Shown here: positions 34,256 through 59,828 of the stretch, piece by piece
How the letters are laid out: each line of letters begins with the position of its first letter
Numbering within the stretch: position 1 is the stretch's first letter
Assembly: GCA_965261185.1 (NCBI GenBank)
Contig: CBDHCN010000002.1
Coordinates: forward strand, 2,878,093-2,942,092
From: Candidatus Aldehydirespiratoraceae bacterium
Lineage (GTDB): Bacteria; Actinomycetota; Acidimicrobiia; Acidimicrobiales; Aldehydirespiratoraceae
Reading direction: 5' to 3'
DNA: 64,000 nt
Notes under the pieces: model-generated
Told to the model about the DNA's origin: nothing
Databases searched by the model: none
The model's input: only the letters and a program-made list of their open reading frames with translations
Program-made: the position numbers and the translations under genes

Positions 34256-34774
34256 TTAACCGGGGCCTGTGAGCGAACTCAGCAGGGCGTCGATTGCTTG
34301 ATCGGCGATAGCGACCATCTCTGAGTCGGTGCGGTCCTGGATGGGGTGCTCGGTCAAGACGTGGGCTATGTCACCTCCGAGGCTCTTGCTTTGTTGCTCG
34401 GCGCCGTCGGCGAACTCAACGGTGGCAACGAACACTCCTGGAATGCCGCGGCGTTCCAGATCGTTGATGTCGTGCACACTGCACGTCGTGCAGGAACCTC
34501 AATCGGCGAGCGCTTCGATCACCGCGTCGCAGGACACGGCAATCTCATGGCGCAGATCGACCGGCGCTGGTTTGGTGAAGGTCGGCTTTTTGAAGCGCTT
34601 CACGTTGACGCCGAGGCCGGTCAGCTTTTGCTCCACGCGGTTGAGAAAAATGTCTCCACGGGGCTTGGAGATGTCGAGTAGTCCGACCGTTAGTCCGTTG
34701 AGAGACTCGGGTCGAGCGACACGCTCACGTTTGTTGGGCCGCAACTCAGCCGTGGGATCAAGAACAACAGTCAT
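34256..34774 (-). CDS. candidate selenoprotein with U-G-S-C motif (in-frame TGA at 34499-34501)
   Basis: ORFs 34499..34774 and 34256..34477 share one frame. Read-through gives ...AVIEALAD-[TGA]-GSCTTCSVHDINDLERRGIPGVF... A hairpin lies just downstream of the TGA. The start overlaps the upstream gene's stop (ATGA). Confidence 0.7.
34479..34493 (-). promoter_or_regulatory. candidate SECIS-like hairpin
   Basis: In the mRNA, CUGCAC-GAC-GUGCAG starts 6 nt after the UGA. The octamer UGCACGAC is repeated 16 nt apart, allowing alternative pairings. Confidence 0.35.
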
Positions 34775-36237
34775 CGAGTGATCTCCTTTGTGACAGTCAC
34801 GCTACCGGTTGCGCCGGTCACCCAACCAGCGATGGTAGAAGAGAACAACCCAGCATGGCTGCCTCCGTGAACAACATGAATCCCTCCAGGCGGGAACTTC
34901 GGTAGCTGATGGCCCGCGACCGATGTCGGCATACCCTCTTCGATTCCGCCGGAGCCGGCGATTATGTCGTCGCCGTCGATCATTAGCAGCGCTTCAAGTT
35001 CTGCCAGAAAGCGGGCCCTGTCCCAGGAGGCATCTCGGTATCGGGCCATATGTTCAGGACTCATCACGATCACGGTTTCCATCGACATGACCATTCTCGG
35101 GCTGACGTTGACGCGTAGCATTTCGGCGAAGTGCTTGGTGAGCGATTCCGGAGAACGCGACTTCTGATCGAACATCAGTCGGGGGCCTTCCCCGGGGAAT
35201 AGGGTGACGGTGGAGACGTTGCGGTCGAAACCGCGAGATTCGGCGAAGGTGTCGAAGGCGCTGCCCTCTTCGTCTTCGGCGAAGCACAACCCGATCTTTG
35301 AGGGGCTGCCCTGGGTGGCGCGGTCGACACCGCCGGGTCTGCCTCCACCGATATTGCGAATAACCAACTGGAGAGCACGGCCGATGGTGTTGTTGGCGCG
35401 GTTCCCTTGGCCCAACAGATTGAGGCCGCTGTTCATGTGAATTTCGTGACGGATGGGTCCGTTGACGATCAGGATTGGACCTACCGGCATAGTGGTGGCC
35501 AACAGTCCGTGCATGTTGAACTCGTCGGTGCAGGCTGCTTCGACCGCGCATAGCACCACAGGGAGATACTCGGGCTTGCAGCCGGCCATTACTGCGTTGA
35601 CAGCCACTTTCTCGACGGTGCATTCGACCAGATCGGGTGGTATGACGGCCACCACCTCCTCCGCGGAGCGACTTGTGCCTTCAAGCATTCTCAGCACCCG
35701 CGCCTCGGTTGGGGGTACGACCGGCATTCCATCACTGAAGCCGCGGTCGAACATGGCTTCTACGTCATCTTCCAACTCGGCGAGTTCGATTCGCCGACTT
35801 TTTAGTATTGAACCTGAGAAGCGCACGGCGAGTTCATCGCTGAGGTTGGGATCGACACTCAGTGAGCCGCATCCGGGTCTCCAATCGGGAAGGTCGGTTC
35901 CGAGACCGTTGAGTCCAGTGAACTCTTCCCAAGCCTGGCGAGACCAACCGACTATGCGATCGGCTTCGGAACCGTCGTCGACTCGCAGCAGCGTGGGTAC
36001 TGTCTCGATTTGATTATGCCATGACAAGGCGAGGTCGGCATCGTGGGTTACCCAGTCGGCGTTTTGGGGAAAGGTGGGGTCGTCTTGGGTGATGACTGAG
36101 ACTCCAATGCGTTCGGCCATCTCGGCTAAGACTGGTGCCACTAGGACACAAGTCGGGCAGTCCTTTTTGACAACGGCTACGAGACCATCGGGGAGCGGAG
36201 CGGTGTTGGTATCGGGCACTCGCCAACTGTGGCACAC
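34771..36237 (-). CDS. thioredoxin-fold domain fused to a large domain of unknown function
   Basis: The N-terminus reads LVAVVKKDCPTCVLVAPVLAEM (CxxC) and a second WRPGCGSLS motif follows. About 330 aa follow that I cannot assign (GMPVVPPTEARVLRML, VNAVMAGCKPEYLPVV, GQGNRANNTIGRAL). The exact start is uncertain (GTG 36237 or 36219). Confidence 0.75.
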   Translation of the reverse strand: MCHSWRVPDTNTAPLPDGLVAVVKKDCPTCVLVAPVLAEMAERIGVSVITQDDPTFPQNADWVTHDADLALSWHNQIETVPTLLRVDDGSEADRIVGWSRQAWEEFTGLNGLGTDLPDWRPGCGSLSVDPNLSDELAVRFSGSILKSRRIELAELEDDVEAMFDRGFSDGMPVVPPTEARVLRMLEGTSRSAEEVVAVIPPDLVECTVEKVAVNAVMAGCKPEYLPVVLCAVEAACTDEFNMHGLLATTMPVGPILIVNGPIRHEIHMNSGLNLLGQGNRANNTIGRALQLVIRNIGGGRPGGVDRATQGSPSKIGLCFAEDEEGSAFDTFAESRGFDRNVSTVTLFPGEGPRLMFDQKSRSPESLTKHFAEMLRVNVSPRMVMSMETVIVMSPEHMARYRDASWDRARFLAELEALLMIDGDDIIAGSGGIEEGMPTSVAGHQLPKFPPGGIHVVHGGSHAGLFSSTIAGWVTGATGSVTVTKEITR

Positions 36238-45690: not shown

Positions 45691-46866
45691 ATGCTTGAAC
45701 GGAGGATCGCCAACGATCAACACGAATCGCTGCTGGAACGTCGCCTCGCCTCTTACCCGGCGGTGGCGCTGGTTGGTCCGCGTCAGTGCGGCAAGACCAC
45801 GCTCGCTCAATCACTCGGGGGTCGCTACTACGACATGGAGCTCGAATCCGACCGTTTGAGGTTGGATCTCGAATGGGACCAGATGGCTGGAGGTGGAAGT
45901 CTTGTGGTCATCGACGAAGCCCAAGCAGCCCCGGAGATCTTCGGTCGACTACGCAGCACCATCGATGCCCAACGTGGCCTCTGTGGGCGCTTCCTGTTGC
46001 TGGGTTCGATAGCGCCGTCTCTGATGAAGAACGTTTCGGAGTCGCTCGCCGGTCGCTTGAGCGTGGTGGAGTTGGCGCCTCTGTCCTGGCTGGAGCTGGG
46101 CGGCGAAGCCCGCGAGCGCCTTTGGCACTGCGGCGGGTTTGCCGACGGTGGAGTGCTCCACGGCAGAGGCTTTCCCGACTGGCAACACGATTATCTGAAC
46201 CTGCTTGCGCAGCGTGATCTGCCAATGTGGGGACTACCCGCCACGGCTCCCACCACCCTGCGCCTCTTCGAGATGTTGGCGACATCACATGGGCAGCAGT
46301 GGAACGCCAGCGAGATCGGTCGCGCCCTGGGGCTCTCCTATCACACGGTGAACGACTACTTCGACTACCTGGAAGGCGCGTTCCTGCTCAGGCGTCTTCC
46401 CGCCTTTCATGGCAATGTTCGCAAGCAGCTCACGAAACGACCGAAGGTCTACTGGCGCGACAGTGGCCTGCTGCACAGCTTGTGGGGAATCGGCAACGCC
46501 TCGGAACTGCTCAGTCATCCGATGGTGGGCGCGAGCTGGGAAGGACATGTTATTGAGCAAGTGCTGACAGCCCTGCAGCAATCAGGGACACCCTTCAGAG
46601 CTTCGCACCTGCGCACGGCTGACGGTCGCGAGATTGATCTCGTCGTCAACGTACGGCAGCAACTCTGGGCTATTGAGGTGAAACTCACCAGCAATCCAAG
46701 CCGTTCCGACATGGCCCGCCTCAACGACACAGCCGATCTGATCGGAGCTCACAGACGGTTCTTGGTGACTCGAGGCGCCGCGACTGCTAGCGGCGGAGCA
46801 CAGACCGTCTGTGATCTTGCTCGCATGATCCTTCAAGCAAGCAAACCGCTCTACGAGAGCCCTTGA
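45691..46866 (+). CDS. AAA-type ATPase with DUF4143-like C-terminal region
   Basis: Walker A (LVGPRQCGKTTLA) and Walker B (LVVIDEAQ) are present. The C-terminal part (GASWEGHVIEQV...WAIEVKLTSNP) resembles the restriction-endonuclease-like DUF4143 module. A markedly AT-rich leader precedes the gene. Confidence 0.8.
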   Translation: MLERRIANDQHESLLERRLASYPAVALVGPRQCGKTTLAQSLGGRYYDMELESDRLRLDLEWDQMAGGGSLVVIDEAQAAPEIFGRLRSTIDAQRGLCGRFLLLGSIAPSLMKNVSESLAGRLSVVELAPLSWLELGGEARERLWHCGGFADGGVLHGRGFPDWQHDYLNLLAQRDLPMWGLPATAPTTLRLFEMLATSHGQQWNASEIGRALGLSYHTVNDYFDYLEGAFLLRRLPAFHGNVRKQLTKRPKVYWRDSGLLHSLWGIGNASELLSHPMVGASWEGHVIEQVLTALQQSGTPFRASHLRTADGREIDLVVNVRQQLWAIEVKLTSNPSRSDMARLNDTADLIGAHRRFLVTRGAATASGGAQTVCDLARMILQASKPLYESP

Positions 46867-49800
46867 CCGACGTTCTCAGTGCTAGTTCTGGAGATCTTGA
46901 CAGTGTGTGTCTCACCGTCGTCGGACAACAAGGTGATGGTGTACCCAGCGACGGTGATGCTCTGGCCCTCGGTCAGGAACGGGGACTCGTCGCTGAATCC
47001 CGAGGTTGTTTCGTTCGCTCCCTTGATCGGTAGTGCGCCTGTTGCTATGGCGGCATCCACGGTGTACACCAACACGCCTTCGGGCAGTCGCTGCGAAATA
47101 TCCGAGTCGTAGCCGAATCGGCGTCTGCTCTCGACGACGATCACCTCGGTTCTCGAGAGCGGTATTGCGGCCATTGCCGTTCCGTCGCCGGGGTCGGCTA
47201 CGGGGGTCAGGTCGACGGTAGCTTCGGGTTCGGTGATGCAACGGATTTGGGCGGTGTCGAGCCAGCCCAATAGCCAGCGGTTCCATGCCAACATCTCGCC
47301 GCCGTCGAAGCGATAGCCGTATTCGGGAGGGAGGAAGACTCTGAATCCCATGAGGCCGAAATCCGCTGAGGGCCAGTTTGCGACCGCGGAGGTTCTGGAT
47401 GCTCGCGAACCGCTGGCATCGTAGAGGTCTGCAAGGCCGAGATTGTGCGCAAGTTCGTGAGCCGCGGCGTGGCCCCACTCTTGAAGCGTGCCGTCACCCA
47501 AGAAGATAATCCACGAGGAGGGGAGGTTGATTCGGTTGGTGGTCAGACTACCTTCGTCGGTCGTCACTTGACCTCCGGCGTTCGCTCCGTCGAAATGGGT
47601 GCCGGGTCCGACGGTCATCACAACGTCTATCCCGCTGAAATCGAATTCGGGGTCGGCGAGTCTTGCCGCGGCGTCTGAAATCGATTCGGATTCGTTGTAT
47701 ACGCTTCCCAAGTAGTCTCCGTAATTGTTCTCGACTCTGAGCCATCGGTGCAGGGGAACGAACTCGATGTCGAGCTTTCCGTAACTGCCCGCCTCAAGGT
47801 ACTGCTCGGCATACCGCAGACTCTCTCGGGACTCATGCCGTGTCGAATATTCGGCCTCAGCATCGGGGAAGTCCACGAACAGCACCGCTACCCGCACAGT
47901 TCTGGTGGCCTCTACAGACCCGCGATGTGGGAAACCCGGCGACAGATGCCCTCCACCGAAGGGTCGGCACATGTCCGGATCCGCACCGGTAGTATGACGG
48001 ACACCGATCGGCATGGGCACGGCCAGCGCGAAGCCCCAGCAGGTGAGAGTGCCGTCGATGTGCAACCCGCAGGACTGAGATTGTCCGCCGGCGAAGACGG
48101 CGCTGAATTCTCCGCTGGGAGCGTAGGGTTGACCGGGGTAGTCGTATCCCCAGCAACTGACTGTCTTGTCGATGCGCAGCCCGCAAGAGTGTCGTCGGCC
48201 AGCGCTGACGGCGCTAAATTGCCCGCTCGGAGGAGTCCCGTAACCCGCGTTGTTGTATCCCCAGCATGCAACCGTCTTGTCGATGCCTAGGCCGCACGAG
48301 TGAGATTGTCCTCCAGTGATGGCGGTGAACCGCCCGCGTGGTGTGTCGGTCTGCAGATTGTCGTCCGGCCCCCAGCATGTGATTGCCATATCGGTTCGTA
48401 GACCGCAAGAAATTCCACCACCAGTTGTGATCGCGGTGAACTGACCGCTAGGGGCATCCGTCCGGCCTTCGATGTTGTCGCCCCAGCATGTGACGGTCTT
48501 GTCGGTGCGTAGCGCGCACGAATGCCAATACCCTATTGTGACATCGGTGAAACGTCCGTCGGGAGTGTCGGTCTGGTTGTCGTAGTCTTGTCCCCAGCAG
48601 GCTAGGGTTTGTTCGGCGCGTATCCCGCACGAACGAGACGTCCCTGAAGCTAAGGCGGTAAATTGTCCGCTGGGTGGGTCAGTCTCTCCCGTGAGGTTGC
48701 TTCCCCAGCAGGTGATGGTGTTGTCGGTGCGCAGACCGCAGGTAAACCGGTGGCCGGTGGCGACAGCGATAAAATGCCCGCTCGGCGCGAAGGCTTGAGC
48801 TTCGGTGTTGTCTCCCCAGCAGGCAAGGGTATTGTCGCTGCGTATTCCGCACGAATGCCAATCGCCCATGGTGAGATTGGTGAACTTCCCGATGGGTGCG
48901 TCGGTCTGCTCGTTGTAGTCTTGTCCCCAGCAGAGGATTGTGTTGTCTGTGCGTAGTCCGCAAGAATGTGATCCGCCGGCTGCAATGGCTTTGAATTGTC
49001 CGTTGGGCGCATGGGTAGCTCCTTCGTAGACGTATCCCCAACAGGAGATGGTGTTGTCTGTACGGAGCCCGCAAGAATGCGATCCTCCGGTAGTGATCGC
49101 GGTGAACAGCCCGTTGGGAGTGTTGGTCTGCTGGCTTTGGCCGTGACCCCAACAGGTGATGGTCCTATCGGCGCGTAACCCGCAGGAATACTGATATCCC
49201 GCCGTGATGTCGGTGAATTGTCCGGCGGGAGGGCTGGACTCTCCGTAGAAGTTGGACCCCCAGCATGCGATGGTTTGGTCGGTGCGAAGTCCGCAGGCGT
49301 GACTCGCACCAGCGGTGATGTCGGTGAACTGCCCAACCGGAGGACTCGGCAGTCCCCAAAGGTTCGATCCCCAGCAGGTGATGGTGTTGTCAGTCCGTAT
49401 CCCGCACGAGATTGAACTAGCGGTAGTGACAGCGGTGAACTGCCCGACCGGCGGCTCAGCCTGACCGAAACGGATGTCGCCCCAGCAGGTGACGGTCTTG
49501 TCGGTGCGAATCCCGCAGGAATGATCTCCGTCAACGCCACCGTAAGCGCTAACGGCGGTGAACTGGCCAACGGGAGGGTTGGACTCTCCATAGTTGTTCG
49601 CTCCCCAGCAAGCAATGGTCTGGTCCGTGCGCAACCCACAGGAATGCTCGTATCCTGCGGCAACGGCGGTGAATTCGTTGCAATCTGGGCTGGCGGGGTC
49701 GATGGACACCGGGGGTTCGCCCTTGTAGCGGTACAAGAAAGTGGCCAGCTGACCGCGGGTGATCGGTTCGTCGGGAGAGTAGGTCGTGGGGCTGGTGCCG

Positions 49801-50301
49801 GTGGTTATGCCACTGCGGAACATCCAGGCCACTGGTTGCTGTTGCCAGGGTGCCGTGACATCGGCGAAAGGGTGGCTCGCGGCGTGGGGTCTGCCTGCGA
49901 GGCGATGCAGGAAAGCGGCGACTTCACCGCGTGTGAGGGTGTCGTTCGGCGCGAACGCGGTGGGGGTTTTGCCAGTGGTAATGTTGTTCGTGTACATCCA
50001 GGAGACGGCTTTGTTCCAGTCTTCGCCGATGACATCTTCAAATGGGTGAGGTGGTGCATCCGGTTGTCCGCGCATGCGCCATATGTACAGGGCGGGTGTC
50101 GCCCCGGCTCGCCGCGATATTCGGCGCAAAACAGGCTGAATTGTCAGTGTCGACGATGCGGTTGTCGACCATCCACTGGACTGGTTCGGTGTAGTAGCGC
50201 TCTGGTTCGACATCACCGAAACCCGCTACTCCCGCAACAGGTGCCGCGGGTGCCAATAGCCCGACAACCAAACCCAACACCAAACACACTCGCTTGCCCA
50301 C
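46851..50301 (-). CDS. secreted SLH-like x3 / RCC1-like x15 / M6 (InhA-like) zinc metalloprotease; N-terminal +1 frameshift near 50098-50106
   Basis: The signal peptide and first SLH-like repeat lie in ORF 50038..50301 (MGKRVCLVLGLVVGLLAPAAP...FGDVEPERYYTEPVQWMVDN). The main ORF 46851..50216 has FEDV...TRGEVAAFLHRLAG repeats and 15 units of hSCGLRTDxTIxCWG. Its C-terminus has VAVLFVDFPD and HELAHNLGLADLY. Confidence 0.75.
47980..49680 (-). repeat. array of ~15 diverged ~111-bp coding repeats (37-aa RCC1-like blades)
   Basis: The period is ~37 aa with the recurring consensus SCG(L/I)RTD.T(I/V).CWG......(P)..G.FT.(I/V). The coordinates are approximate. Confidence 0.7.
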
Positions 50302-59026: not shown

Positions 59027-59608
59027 CTAGGTGGCCAACAACTGTTCAATTCGTTCGGCGAGTTCTGCGACAGGGAGTCTGGTTACCTCGGTCGTGCCAT
59101 CGTCGTTGATGAAAGCGTAGATCGGCTGGCTGAAGACGCCGTAGCGTTCCCATACCGAATTGTCGGTGTCGGACACGTTTATGAGGTCAAAGACTCCGTA
59201 GCCCCCGACGAAGCGCTCAAGATCGGCTTCTGAGGTGCTGCTGCCACCGACGCCGATGATGTCAATCTGACCGGCGAATTGTTCCTGCACCGATGCGACC
59301 GCACCGGCTTCGCGTTGACAAGCCGGTCACCATGGCGCCCAAAACCACAACACGAGATCCTGTCCCTCGTAATCACCGGCATCGAATTGGCCTCCACCGA
59401 CGCGTTCCTCGGTCCAGTCGTGGGGCCATGCAACCGCAACAGAATCGCCCGCTTCGGTTGATGGTGACGGTCCTTCGGTGGTGGTCGTGGTCGTCGGATC
59501 CGGCTGTGCTGGGGTGGCTTCGTCGTCGGTTCCGTCGCCGCATGCACTTACGAAGAGCGCAGCGCCCAACAACGCGGCCGTGAACGGAGACAGCACATTT
59601 CGTTTCAC
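59027..59608 (-). CDS. candidate selenoprotein: TlpA/thioredoxin-like lipoprotein with U-x-x-C active site (in-frame TGA at 59327-59329)
   Basis: ORFs 59327..59608 and 59027..59290 share one frame. Read-through gives ...GQDLVLWFWAPW-[TGA]-PACQREAGAV..., the WCxxC position of redoxins. The N-terminal lipobox is ALFVSAC. A 7-bp hairpin starts immediately after the TGA. Confidence 0.75.
59304..59326 (-). promoter_or_regulatory. candidate SECIS-like hairpin
   Basis: In the mRNA, CCGGCUU-[GUCAACGCG]-AAGCCGG starts at the first nucleotide after the UGA. Confidence 0.4.
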
Positions 59609-59715
59609 CGTTACCCATCGTAGGACCTTTTGGATTTACCAGCACCTTGCAGCCGTATTGTCAGTACTACCGGCGATAGCCTGGCTGAGCTGAGAGAAGT
59701 AACGAAGAGGTCACG

Positions 59716-59808
59716 ATGAGTACCCGGATGTTGATCGGAGTCTCGCTCTTGGTCGGGCTGCTGATTCTTGTGGCAGGAGCCGTTCAGTTGTTGATGATCG
59801 TCGGCTGA
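59716..59808 (+). CDS. possible 30-codon hydrophobic micro-protein upstream of lpd (weak)
   Basis: GAAGAGG lies 5 nt before the ATG. The product is MSTRMLIGVSLLVGLLILVAGAVQLLMIVG*. It is below the ORF-track length cut-off. Confidence 0.2.
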   Translation: MSTRMLIGVSLLVGLLILVAGAVQLLMIVG

Positions 59809-59828
59809 AAAGAGTCGGCCCCGGTAAC

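Follow-up and report, generated by a model that had tools for sequence, protein, structure and literature searches.

The stretch of DNA analysed here, which we call the window, comprises 64,000 nucleotides from Candidatus Aldehydirespiratoraceae bacterium (GenBank assembly GCA_965261185.1, contig CBDHCN010000002.1), and on its minus strand two open reading frames (ORFs), 59327..59608 and 59027..59290, share a single frame. Reading through the TGA at 59329..59327 yields V/MKRNVLSPFTAALLGAALFVSAC...LVLWFWAPW-[TGA]-PACQREAGAVAS...LLAT*, a frame that begins with the start codon GTG at 59608..59606, has 93 codons before the TGA and 99 after it, and ends with the stop codon TAG at 59029..59027. We consider it highly probable that this locus is a genuine selenoprotein gene, encoding an actinobacterial DsbE/DsbF (TlpA/ResA-like) lipoprotein with the active site W-U94-P-A-C97, where U is selenocysteine (Sec). 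This reading is based on the conservation of the UGA, on purifying selection downstream of it, on the Cys that homologues have at its position and on a covarying hairpin which is specific to the Sec forms. A first-pass annotation of the window had already placed the two ORFs in one frame, with the TGA at the first Cys of a WCxxC motif; its coordinates were exact and the homologues do align. The features of the locus are the following:

59027..59608, minus strand: probable selenoprotein gene, complete, 193 codons plus stop (from the sequence, Pfam and the open, conserved frame)
59540..59608, minus strand: predicted signal peptide with lipobox, residues 1-23 (from pattern reading of the sequence)
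59429..59539, minus strand: low-complexity linker rich in Pro, Thr and Ser, approximately residues 24-60 (from the translation)
59030..59419, minus strand: thioredoxin-fold catalytic domain of the TlpA/ResA/DsbE type, residues 64-193 (from Pfam and PDB matches)
59327..59329, minus strand: in-frame TGA, very probably read as selenocysteine U94 (from conservation in orthologues and Cys in distant homologues)
59318..59320, minus strand: codon TGT for C97, which is the resolving Cys in UxxC (from the sequence; Cys in every UxxC member listed)
59304..59326, minus strand: hairpin CCGGCUU-9 nt-AAGCCGG (present here, not conserved in the family)
59290..59307, minus strand: hairpin CCGGUGC-GGUC-GCAUCGG resembling a selenocysteine insertion sequence (SECIS), nucleotides +20 to +37 after the UGA (from conservation and covariation)

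Relatives of the protein were sought in a collection of 5.8 billion sequences. For the seven nearest, which share 59-85% identity with its N-terminal half, the gene call stops at ...LVLWFWAPW, and full-length relatives start only at 47% identity or less, where the three that were retrieved have WFWAPWCPxC. In the homologues at or below 47% identity, as well as in the PDB entries 3IOS and 1LU4, the motif is WFWAPWCPxC or WFWTPWCPFC, with a Cys opposite the TGA. The alignment with TlpA-like homologues that the first-pass annotation had proposed therefore places the first Cys of WCPxC opposite the TGA.

The TGA is found at the same codon in all eight orthologous contigs, which come from independent assemblies; such conservation goes far past what chance would give. 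Seven of the eight extend past it with the frame intact and conserved (L009 ends before the stop), and in the six that run to the gene's end the 99 codons are uninterrupted and finish with ...LLAT or LLAS. The terminal stop is TAG or TAA in 12 of 12 orthologues. For the 99 codons after the TGA, the ratio of nonsynonymous to synonymous substitution rates (dN/dS, Nei-Gojobori) had a median of 0.20 and ranged from 0.08 to 0.46 in 59 orthologue pairs, with dS up to about 1.3 in the comparisons involving the window's own sequence. A ratio around 0.2 means that the region downstream of the TGA is translated and under purifying selection. The divergence of the orthologues, together with their origin from independent samples and assemblers, excludes an assembly artefact caused by a shared template. 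Regarding the genetic code, 23 of the window's 34 long ORFs are terminated by TGA; UGA is hence an ordinary stop here, and a general reassignment of this codon is rejected.

Public gene calls split the locus into two unnamed proteins in dozens of assemblies. The N-terminal fragment (P0121, 93 residues) belongs to a cluster of 40 members, and the exact C-terminal fragment (P0136, 87 residues) is found on 26 contigs of up to 4.25 Mb. Such a pair of unnamed fragments is what a pseudogene would also give, where a nonsense mutation at the active-site Cys codon (TGC or TGT to TGA) left the two ORFs as decaying remnants, and a single base change is enough to convert that codon. Nevertheless, the TGA is kept in the eight orthologous contigs, at approximately 59-85% protein identity, and in about 95 loci among the matches listed below; neither frameshifts nor extra stops were found, the selection downstream is that of a functional gene, and a dedicated RNA hairpin occurs only alongside the TGA. 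The chance that the locus is a pseudogene is therefore negligible in our estimation. The first-pass annotation had likewise argued that the TGA is hardly a random nonsense mutation, and had named a TGA confined to this strain and accompanied by further lesions as the pattern of a pseudogene; every orthologue examined shares the TGA, and that pattern was not seen in any of the eight.

In order to know how far the family extends, we scanned species-representative genomes, one per species, for the pattern W-F-W-A-P-W-TGA-P (TGGTTYTGGGCNCCNTGGTGACC), which gave at least 119 matching stretches. The pattern ends 2 nucleotides past the TGA, and therefore it includes two bases of the hairpin at +1 to +23 and none of the SECIS-like hairpin. 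Among the matches listed, about 95 continue with P-x-C and 96-103 residues of thioredoxin fold; nearly all of the stretches come from metagenome-assembled genomes (MAGs) of Acidimicrobiia (Ca. Poriferisodalis, Ca. Aldehydirespiratoraceae, Ilumatobacteraceae and 'Acidimicrobiales') and a few from Euzebyales, Nitriliruptorales and Egibacteraceae. The window itself has around 97% DNA identity to several Ca. Aldehydirespiratoraceae chromosomes (e.g. OZ240617.1 and OZ242187.1), and a match to the window's protein is also found on OZ240616.1 and CBDFKX010000002.1. The first-pass annotation had held that Sec outside formate dehydrogenase is uncommon in Actinobacteria. This fails for Acidimicrobiia, in view of at least about 95 W-U-P-x-C loci and of the Sec machinery of Actinomarina described below.

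Some of the matches deserve a separate comment. Family members also appeared in MAGs labelled Chthoniobacterales (L020), Gammaproteobacteria (L033) and Actinomyces (L088), whose sequences group with Acidimicrobiia, suggesting mis-binned contigs. Two others, L084 (Arthrobacter) and L094 (Williamsia), were rejected as chance matches to the pattern, because they have no thioredoxin-like frame. In L063 the conserved frame is lost about 20 codons after the TGA, through a lesion or an assembly error. In members of the Ca. Poriferisodalis type (L015, L022, L027, L031, L048, L050, L058, L064, L070, L071, L083, L107, L123 and L126) the frame upstream of the TGA is open for 250-655 codons, versus about 100 in the window's clade, which suggests either an N-terminal extension or fusion or merely an open GC-rich frame.

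Regarding the RNA, the SECIS-like hairpin at 59307..59290 has an energy of -13.1 kcal/mol (z = -2.5) and a GGUC apical loop at 59300..59297, starting at +27 from the UGA. We compared 96 distinct Sec-form sequences with a control of 109 distinct Cys-form genes from metagenomes that have the same WFWAPW-C-P peptide; the alignment tests used 90 non-redundant, ungapped sequences. The loop at +27 to +30 was GGUC in 88 of the 96 Sec forms. Furthermore, the GGUC loop together with all four loop-proximal pairs was present in 79/96 Sec forms and in 0/109 Cys forms, in which both the RNA and the peptide at this position vary freely. The Cys forms also fold more weakly around this position (-8.8 versus -11.0 kcal/mol, Mann-Whitney p = 1e-10), although their G+C content is higher than that of the Sec forms.

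In the alignment, 74.6% of the cells of the helix were paired, against 67.1 ± 0.9% in shuffles, and the covariation score was 0.210 against 0.096; in both cases none of 500 shuffles reached as high a value. Sliding the partner strand by 1-3 columns made the pairing drop to 35-52%. The fourth pair of the stem was C-G in 55 sequences, G-U in 15 and G-C in 9, and an unguided RNAalifold prediction recovered the core of the same hairpin. We therefore regard it as a candidate SelB-binding element.

The eight sequences that lack GGUC at +27 all have a hairpin of 5-9 bp with a GU-containing loop at +35/+36. This stronger hairpin replaces the one at +27, which indicates that the position of the SECIS has moved within the family. 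The loci concerned (L018, L024, L060, L073, L105, L111, L112 and L122, and also L029, L043, L086 and L093) belong to Euzebyales, Nitriliruptorales, Egibacteraceae and a few Acidimicrobiales, and their loops are GGU, GUU, AGUUG or GGUC. The displaced hairpins were exposed by a register-free detector that asks for at least 5 contiguous pairs. Over the whole set this detector found only 29 of 96 hairpins, and it was too strict because the stem of most members is interrupted after 4 bp by a mismatch or bulge.

Among the matches listed, about 25 loci of Acidimicrobiia represent a sister family, UxxU, in which both positions of the active site are occupied by TGA (W-U-P-F/H/Y/T-U) and an open and conserved frame of about 97 residues follows; the second TGA falls at the position of C97. 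In 22 of 22 distinct UxxU sequences the GGUC loop starts at +27 from the first TGA and at +18 from the second. One GGUC hairpin is thus kept with two UGAs that are 9 nucleotides apart, and apparently this single hairpin serves both codons. The stem is CCAC/GUGG in UxxU versus CUGC/GCAG in UxxC, and the changes are two-sided: G-C became A-U in 21/22 sequences and U-A became C-G in 19/22, while the peptide at the loop changed from A-V-A to T-V-V. The UxxU loci are L010, L019, L025, L030, L036, L040, L041, L047, L054-L056, L059, L075, L078, L085, L092, L101, L110, L115, L117, L121, L124 and L128. Two tandem UxxU copies lie in L121 (TGA at 2223 and 2939), and UxxC and UxxU genes occur together in several MAGs, among them MAG-156 (L019, L032) and P01_F01_bin.18 (L014, L055).

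The hairpin lies wholly within coding sequence and A-V-A is nearly invariant in the Sec forms, so its conservation could be thought a by-product of the amino acids E-A-P/G-A-V-A, with no function of the RNA. The synonymous third positions are fixed far above the background codon use, which argues against this. At +25, GCG was used for Ala in 80/80 cases, versus 34% at the other sites of these sequences; Ala at +31 was encoded by GCA in 82/92 (21% elsewhere) and Val at +28 by GTC in 91/95 (58% elsewhere). Moreover, Cys homologues that share the preceding motif are variable here and in no case have the hairpin, the UxxU forms retain the pairing through double substitutions although their peptide is T-V-V, and the outliers have moved hairpins, not missing ones. 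We hold this explanation to be very improbable.

The first-pass annotation had pointed to another stem-loop, CCGGCUU-AAGCCGG directly after the UGA. This hairpin does exist at 59326..59304, where it is stable by itself (-13.6 kcal/mol, z = -2.6); however, it is not conserved in the family, and the conserved hairpin lies 19 nucleotides further downstream. At least 5 of its 7 pairs are formed in only 20 of the 96 sequences, and its pairing in the alignment (48.4%) was that of the shuffles (48.7%; 349 of 500 at least as high). We therefore dismissed it as the SECIS. The analysis of SECIS covariance that had been proposed thus gave a positive answer for the hairpin at 59307..59290 and a negative one for the hairpin at 59326..59304.

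The window holds another gene of interest in this context:

34256..34774, minus strand: selenoprotein gene of the UGSC family, 172 residues, with a TGA at 34501..34499 at the U of ...EALAD-U-GSCTTC...

Its product scores 151 bits against the curated cut-off of 125 of NCBIfam NF041046. A hairpin with a 5' bulge and a loop starting with GU can be drawn about 15 nucleotides after its UGA, but alone it is not significant. The TGA at 59329..59327 is very probably a second Sec codon in the window beside that of the UGSC-family gene, as had been proposed. The ATG of this gene overlaps (ATGA) the stop of an upstream ORF of 488 residues (34771..36237) without Pfam match.

Several results weigh against the reading of the locus as a selenoprotein gene, and the weakest link is the ability of the source organism to decode Sec. 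No tRNA genes were found in the 64-kb window, and accordingly no tRNA-Sec there; none of the 20 tRNAs in 128 related loci was a tRNA-Sec either. SelA, SelB and SelD motifs were absent from the six-frame translations of the window and of about 1 Mb of related loci, and sel domains from the 34 long ORFs of the window, where housekeeping functions are encoded (carB, pyrD, metK, pheST, SUF and pyruvate dehydrogenase, among others). Regarding the RNA, Rfam gave no gathering-threshold match in the window and none that was relevant at E values up to 10 for the locus, where three weak matches belonged to unrelated families; actually, bacterial SECIS elements are poorly represented in Rfam (2026 preprint). 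The whole 76-nucleotide region folds no better than shuffles (z = 0.15). In the window's own copy, the hairpin at 59326..59304 is as stable as the SECIS-like one and competes with it, given that both use nucleotides +20 to +23 and are thus mutually exclusive folds. While the UGA occupies the A site, the ribosome would mask a large part of the upstream hairpin and so favour the downstream one, as established ribosome footprints suggest. Finally, the loop starts 27 nucleotides after the UGA here and 19 nucleotides after it in Escherichia coli fdhF. A spacing of 27 nucleotides is within the published range of bacterial SECIS elements, but differs from the canonical one of E. coli.

We nevertheless infer that the organism can decode Sec, and three observations support this: the UGSC gene in the same window, the COGs of SelA, SelB and SelD that are listed for bin76, an Acidimicrobiales bin associated with sponges (Slaby et al. 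2017, Table S4), and the selA, selB, selC and selD genes reported for all 84 complete Actinomarina genomes assembled (2026 preprint). Moreover, a TGA at the catalytic site across about 100 species, together with a dedicated hairpin, would be hard to explain without a decoding system.

The absence of sel genes and tRNA-Sec from the window and the related loci is also what would be expected if the UGA were recoded without selenium, through near-cognate read-through (Trp, Cys or Arg) or suppression stimulated by the hairpin, giving a W-x-P-A-C product. Downstream hairpins can promote read-through generally. However, the codon is at the catalytic Cys site, where only Cys or Sec keeps the chemistry, and the hairpin has a loop and an upper stem of the fdhF type, the kind that SelB recognises. 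The curated-family UGSC gene in the same window and the Sec machinery of the related bin and of Actinomarina speak against it as well, and a TGA at both Cys positions, as in the sister family, is implausible for leaky read-through. Therefore, we give this explanation only a small chance.

The protein itself was analysed by means of the read-through product with Cys substituted for the TGA in the Pfam search. Its N-terminus has the parts of a lipoprotein signal peptide, namely a KR n-region, a hydrophobic core and V-S-A-C, with the codon of Cys23 at 59542..59540. The lipobox that had been noticed upstream of the TGA is thus present, by pattern reading, and [LV]-x-[AGS]-C-like lipoboxes are found in the N-termini of 7/7 orthologues. 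The protein would accordingly be lipid-anchored and extracytoplasmic. The linker that follows differs in length and sequence among the orthologues and keeps its composition, and no Pfam or PDB match covers this region (approximately residues 24-60).

In the catalytic domain, the active site W-U94-P-A-C97 is accompanied by a cis-Pro loop, S-Q-P162 (59125..59123). The best Pfam match is AhpC-TSA (PF00578; 45.9 bits, cut-off 26; residues 64-172), and Redoxin (39.1 bits, cut-off 26.6) and Thioredoxin (26.6 bits, cut-off 23.5) are matched too. Among the PDB entries, 3IOS (Mt-DsbF) has an E value of 1.2e-22 over residues 68-188 and 1LU4 (Mt-DsbE/MPT53) one of 4.3e-19, and the next is Bacillus subtilis ResA at about 1e-10. 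DsbF has W-C-P-T-C opposite W-U-P-A-C and Q-Q-P opposite S-Q-P162, and mycobacterial MPT53-like proteins are among the database matches. No NCBIfam model reaches its cut-off for this protein. The equivalog scores were 44.9 bits for ResA (cut-off 170), 36.3 for StoA (210), 23.4 for TlpA (230) and 20.2 for DsbE (123). Judging by these scores, the protein is related to ResA, StoA, TlpA and DsbE/CcmG and is an equivalog of none.

By analogy with these relatives, the most likely role is extracytoplasmic thiol-disulfide exchange via a U94-C97 selenenylsulfide. The catalytic direction would be that of an oxidant if the analogy with Mt-DsbE and Mt-DsbF applies, and a reductant is possible as for ResA and TlpA. 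The position of P162, a cis-proline that as a rule does not vary in the thioredoxin fold, is occupied by Gln in four UxxC loci (L003, L046, L053 and L108; S-Q-Q-T-F) and by Arg in the UxxU loci (T-E/Q-Q-R-T-Y); such a loss is unusual for active thioredoxin-fold enzymes.

The division of the gene into two ORFs, the second of which starts with a GTG at 59290, also allows the view that the UGA mostly terminates. The products would then be a lipoprotein stub of 93 residues, or this stub and a second protein from GTG 59290, and the full-length protein would be minor or selenium-regulated. Bacterial Sec insertion is usually inefficient and competes with RF2, in agreement with this view. However, the 12 codons that separate the TGA from that GTG, including the codon of the resolving Cys, are conserved as in-frame coding sequence. 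The stub would have no more than the anchor and the linker with a portion of the fold, the C-terminal piece would be left without signal peptide and active site, and selection on both halves makes sense only for the fused product. We consider predominant termination improbable, although some selenium-dependent termination is compatible with the selenoprotein reading too.

If the locus is a selenoprotein gene, translation would begin at the GTG at 59608 and proceed until the UGA (59329..59327) enters the A site, where the hairpin at 59307..59290 would recruit the SelB·GTP·Sec-tRNA(Sec) complex. Sec would then replace termination, and 99 further codons would be read to the TAG at 59029..59027. 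Both the binding of SelB and the insertion of Sec at this UGA are deduced from the sequence, and so are the export of the precursor and its lipidation on Cys23. The Pro/Thr-rich linker would keep the domain on the outer face of the membrane, where the U94/C97 pair may alternate between the selenol/thiol and the selenenylsulfide states, swapping disulfides with extracytoplasmic substrates.

Regarding the surroundings of the gene, it is monocistronic and divergent from the lpd-E2-lipoate cluster, a layout kept in all orthologous contigs with at least 59% identity. The eight orthologous contigs share the lpd, E2 and lipoate-synthesis genes on this divergent side, and the genes for a LapA-domain protein, an epimerase, RNase H and pyruvate dehydrogenase E1 on the other side. 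A sigma-70-type promoter was not found in the shared intergenic region of 220 bp (59609..59828), a scan that is uninformative for Actinobacteria. A terminator-like stem followed by UUGUGGUUUU lies at 59351..59371 (minus strand), inside the gene and about 20 nucleotides upstream of the UGA, where it overlaps the codons for YEGQDLVLWFW. The scan found 2 terminator-like sites versus 0.7 expected in shuffles, and this stem is probably due to chance. Elsewhere in the window, an ORF of 1,121 residues (46854..50225, minus strand) has two S-layer-homology (SLH) domains and seven RCC1 repeats; its product is predicted to be a large protein of the cell surface and has no relation to the selenoprotein gene.

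More tentatively, these genes may represent an expansion of membrane-anchored DsbE/F-like selenoproteins that is absent from the catalogues and runs through the whole lineage of Acidimicrobiia, above all the sponge-associated Ca. Poriferisodalis and Ca. Aldehydirespiratoraceae. The UxxC and the diselenide-capable UxxU paralogues, often in one genome, would form a selenium-based extracytoplasmic system for disulfide exchange or antioxidant defence, and one fixed hairpin would serve two spacings (26 and 17 nucleotides to the loop), both codons at once in UxxU. This idea is possible, but we would rather doubt it than adopt it. If it is true, one hairpin with two spacings implies an unusually tolerant geometry of SelB and the ribosome.

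Concerning annotation, at least about 95 Acidimicrobiia loci regain a full-length redox enzyme once this gene is recognised, and it marks these marine and sponge-associated Acidimicrobiia as selenium users well past formate dehydrogenase. The approximately 96 Sec, 22 UxxU and 109 Cys control sequences form a comparative set for SECIS elements, in which a requirement of the RNA dictates the protein sequence (A-V-A versus T-V-V at the loop). An exported, lipid-anchored UxxC enzyme with UxxU sisters would also be a tractable system for studying the benefit of selenium in extracytoplasmic thiol-disulfide exchange. Current understanding is not overturned, since UxxC thioredoxin-fold selenoproteins have been predicted since 2004-2005.

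Among the known systems, the Prx-like selenoproteins (pfam00578; UxxC/UxxU) resemble the window protein in that PF00578 is its best Pfam match and Sec comes first in UxxC. The catalogues list a thiol:disulfide oxidoreductase of the Prx-like kind (pfam00578) and a 'Redoxin family protein' (PF08534; UxxC) among the selenoproteins (PMC9312934, PMC13188914), and the Sargasso Sea survey reported 22 'Prx-like' selenoproteins, 21 of them with UXXC, besides 4 thiol-disulfide-isomerase-like UXXC sequences (PMC1088965). The catalogue entry 'UxxC, UxxU; 1-2 Sec' is matched by the window family together with its UxxU sisters, and in both groups Cys homologues are widespread. The reviews name families by conserved domain and Sec motif, and by this rule the protein of the window belongs with the Prx-like/redoxin UxxC selenoproteins. 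However, its clade differs from the Prx-like entry in being DsbE/DsbF-like, lipoprotein-anchored and concentrated in Acidimicrobiia, and neither this clade nor its breadth in Acidimicrobiia was found in the catalogues or literature searched.

The closest solved structures, Mt-DsbF (Rv1677, 3IOS) and Mt-DsbE/MPT53 (Rv2878c, 1LU4), have the same WFWAPW-C/U-PxC context and the same cis-Pro loop. Both are actinobacterial and extracytoplasmic like the window protein, but they use Cys where the latter has a predicted Sec. Mt-DsbE and Mt-DsbF fold hirudin oxidatively in vitro, without insulin-reductase or isomerase activity, and DsbD or Rv2877c is their proposed partner (PMC3853704). In Mycobacterium tuberculosis the genes of these proposed partners are nearby, whereas neither the 34 long ORFs of the window nor the neighbourhoods of the orthologues showed a DsbD/CcdA-type partner.

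The SECIS of E. coli fdhF is also a hairpin within coding sequence 3' of the UGA, with a GGUC loop and an upper stem of 4 bp, which is UGCA/UGCA in fdhF and (C/G)UGC/GCA(G/U/C) in the window family. The fdhF sequence used in the comparison was found with 100% identity under annotated, selenocysteine-containing fdhF in 5,419 of 5,426 E. coli genomes. Immediately below this stem fdhF has a bulged U, and in the majority of the family the corresponding place is taken by a mismatch or a bulged 5' pyrimidine; the window's own stem, unlike that of fdhF, is continuous over 7 bp, with one G-U pair and without bulge. An fdhF-like lower stem (GACCGGC with GCCGGUC at +52 to +58) is perfect in 8/96 sequences, all of the window's subclade, and because of this limitation we do not claim it.

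The ResA-like WAxxUGC selenoproteins of NF041054 are, like the window protein, bacterial ResA/TlpA-like thioredoxin-fold selenoproteins. They differ in the motif, UGC versus UPxC (WAPWUPAC), and in the architecture, with a model of 354 positions, and at 16.6 bits against a cut-off of 300 the window protein is not a member. Finally, SelL, which Shchedrina et al. are said to have described in 2007, is reportedly a Prx-like selenoprotein with a UxxU diselenide that occurs in aquatic eukaryotes and in marine bacteria. It resembles the UxxU sisters in having two Sec in a UxxU thioredoxin-like motif, while the window gene itself is of the UxxC type, and in the UxxU sisters both Sec are apparently served by a single downstream SECIS.

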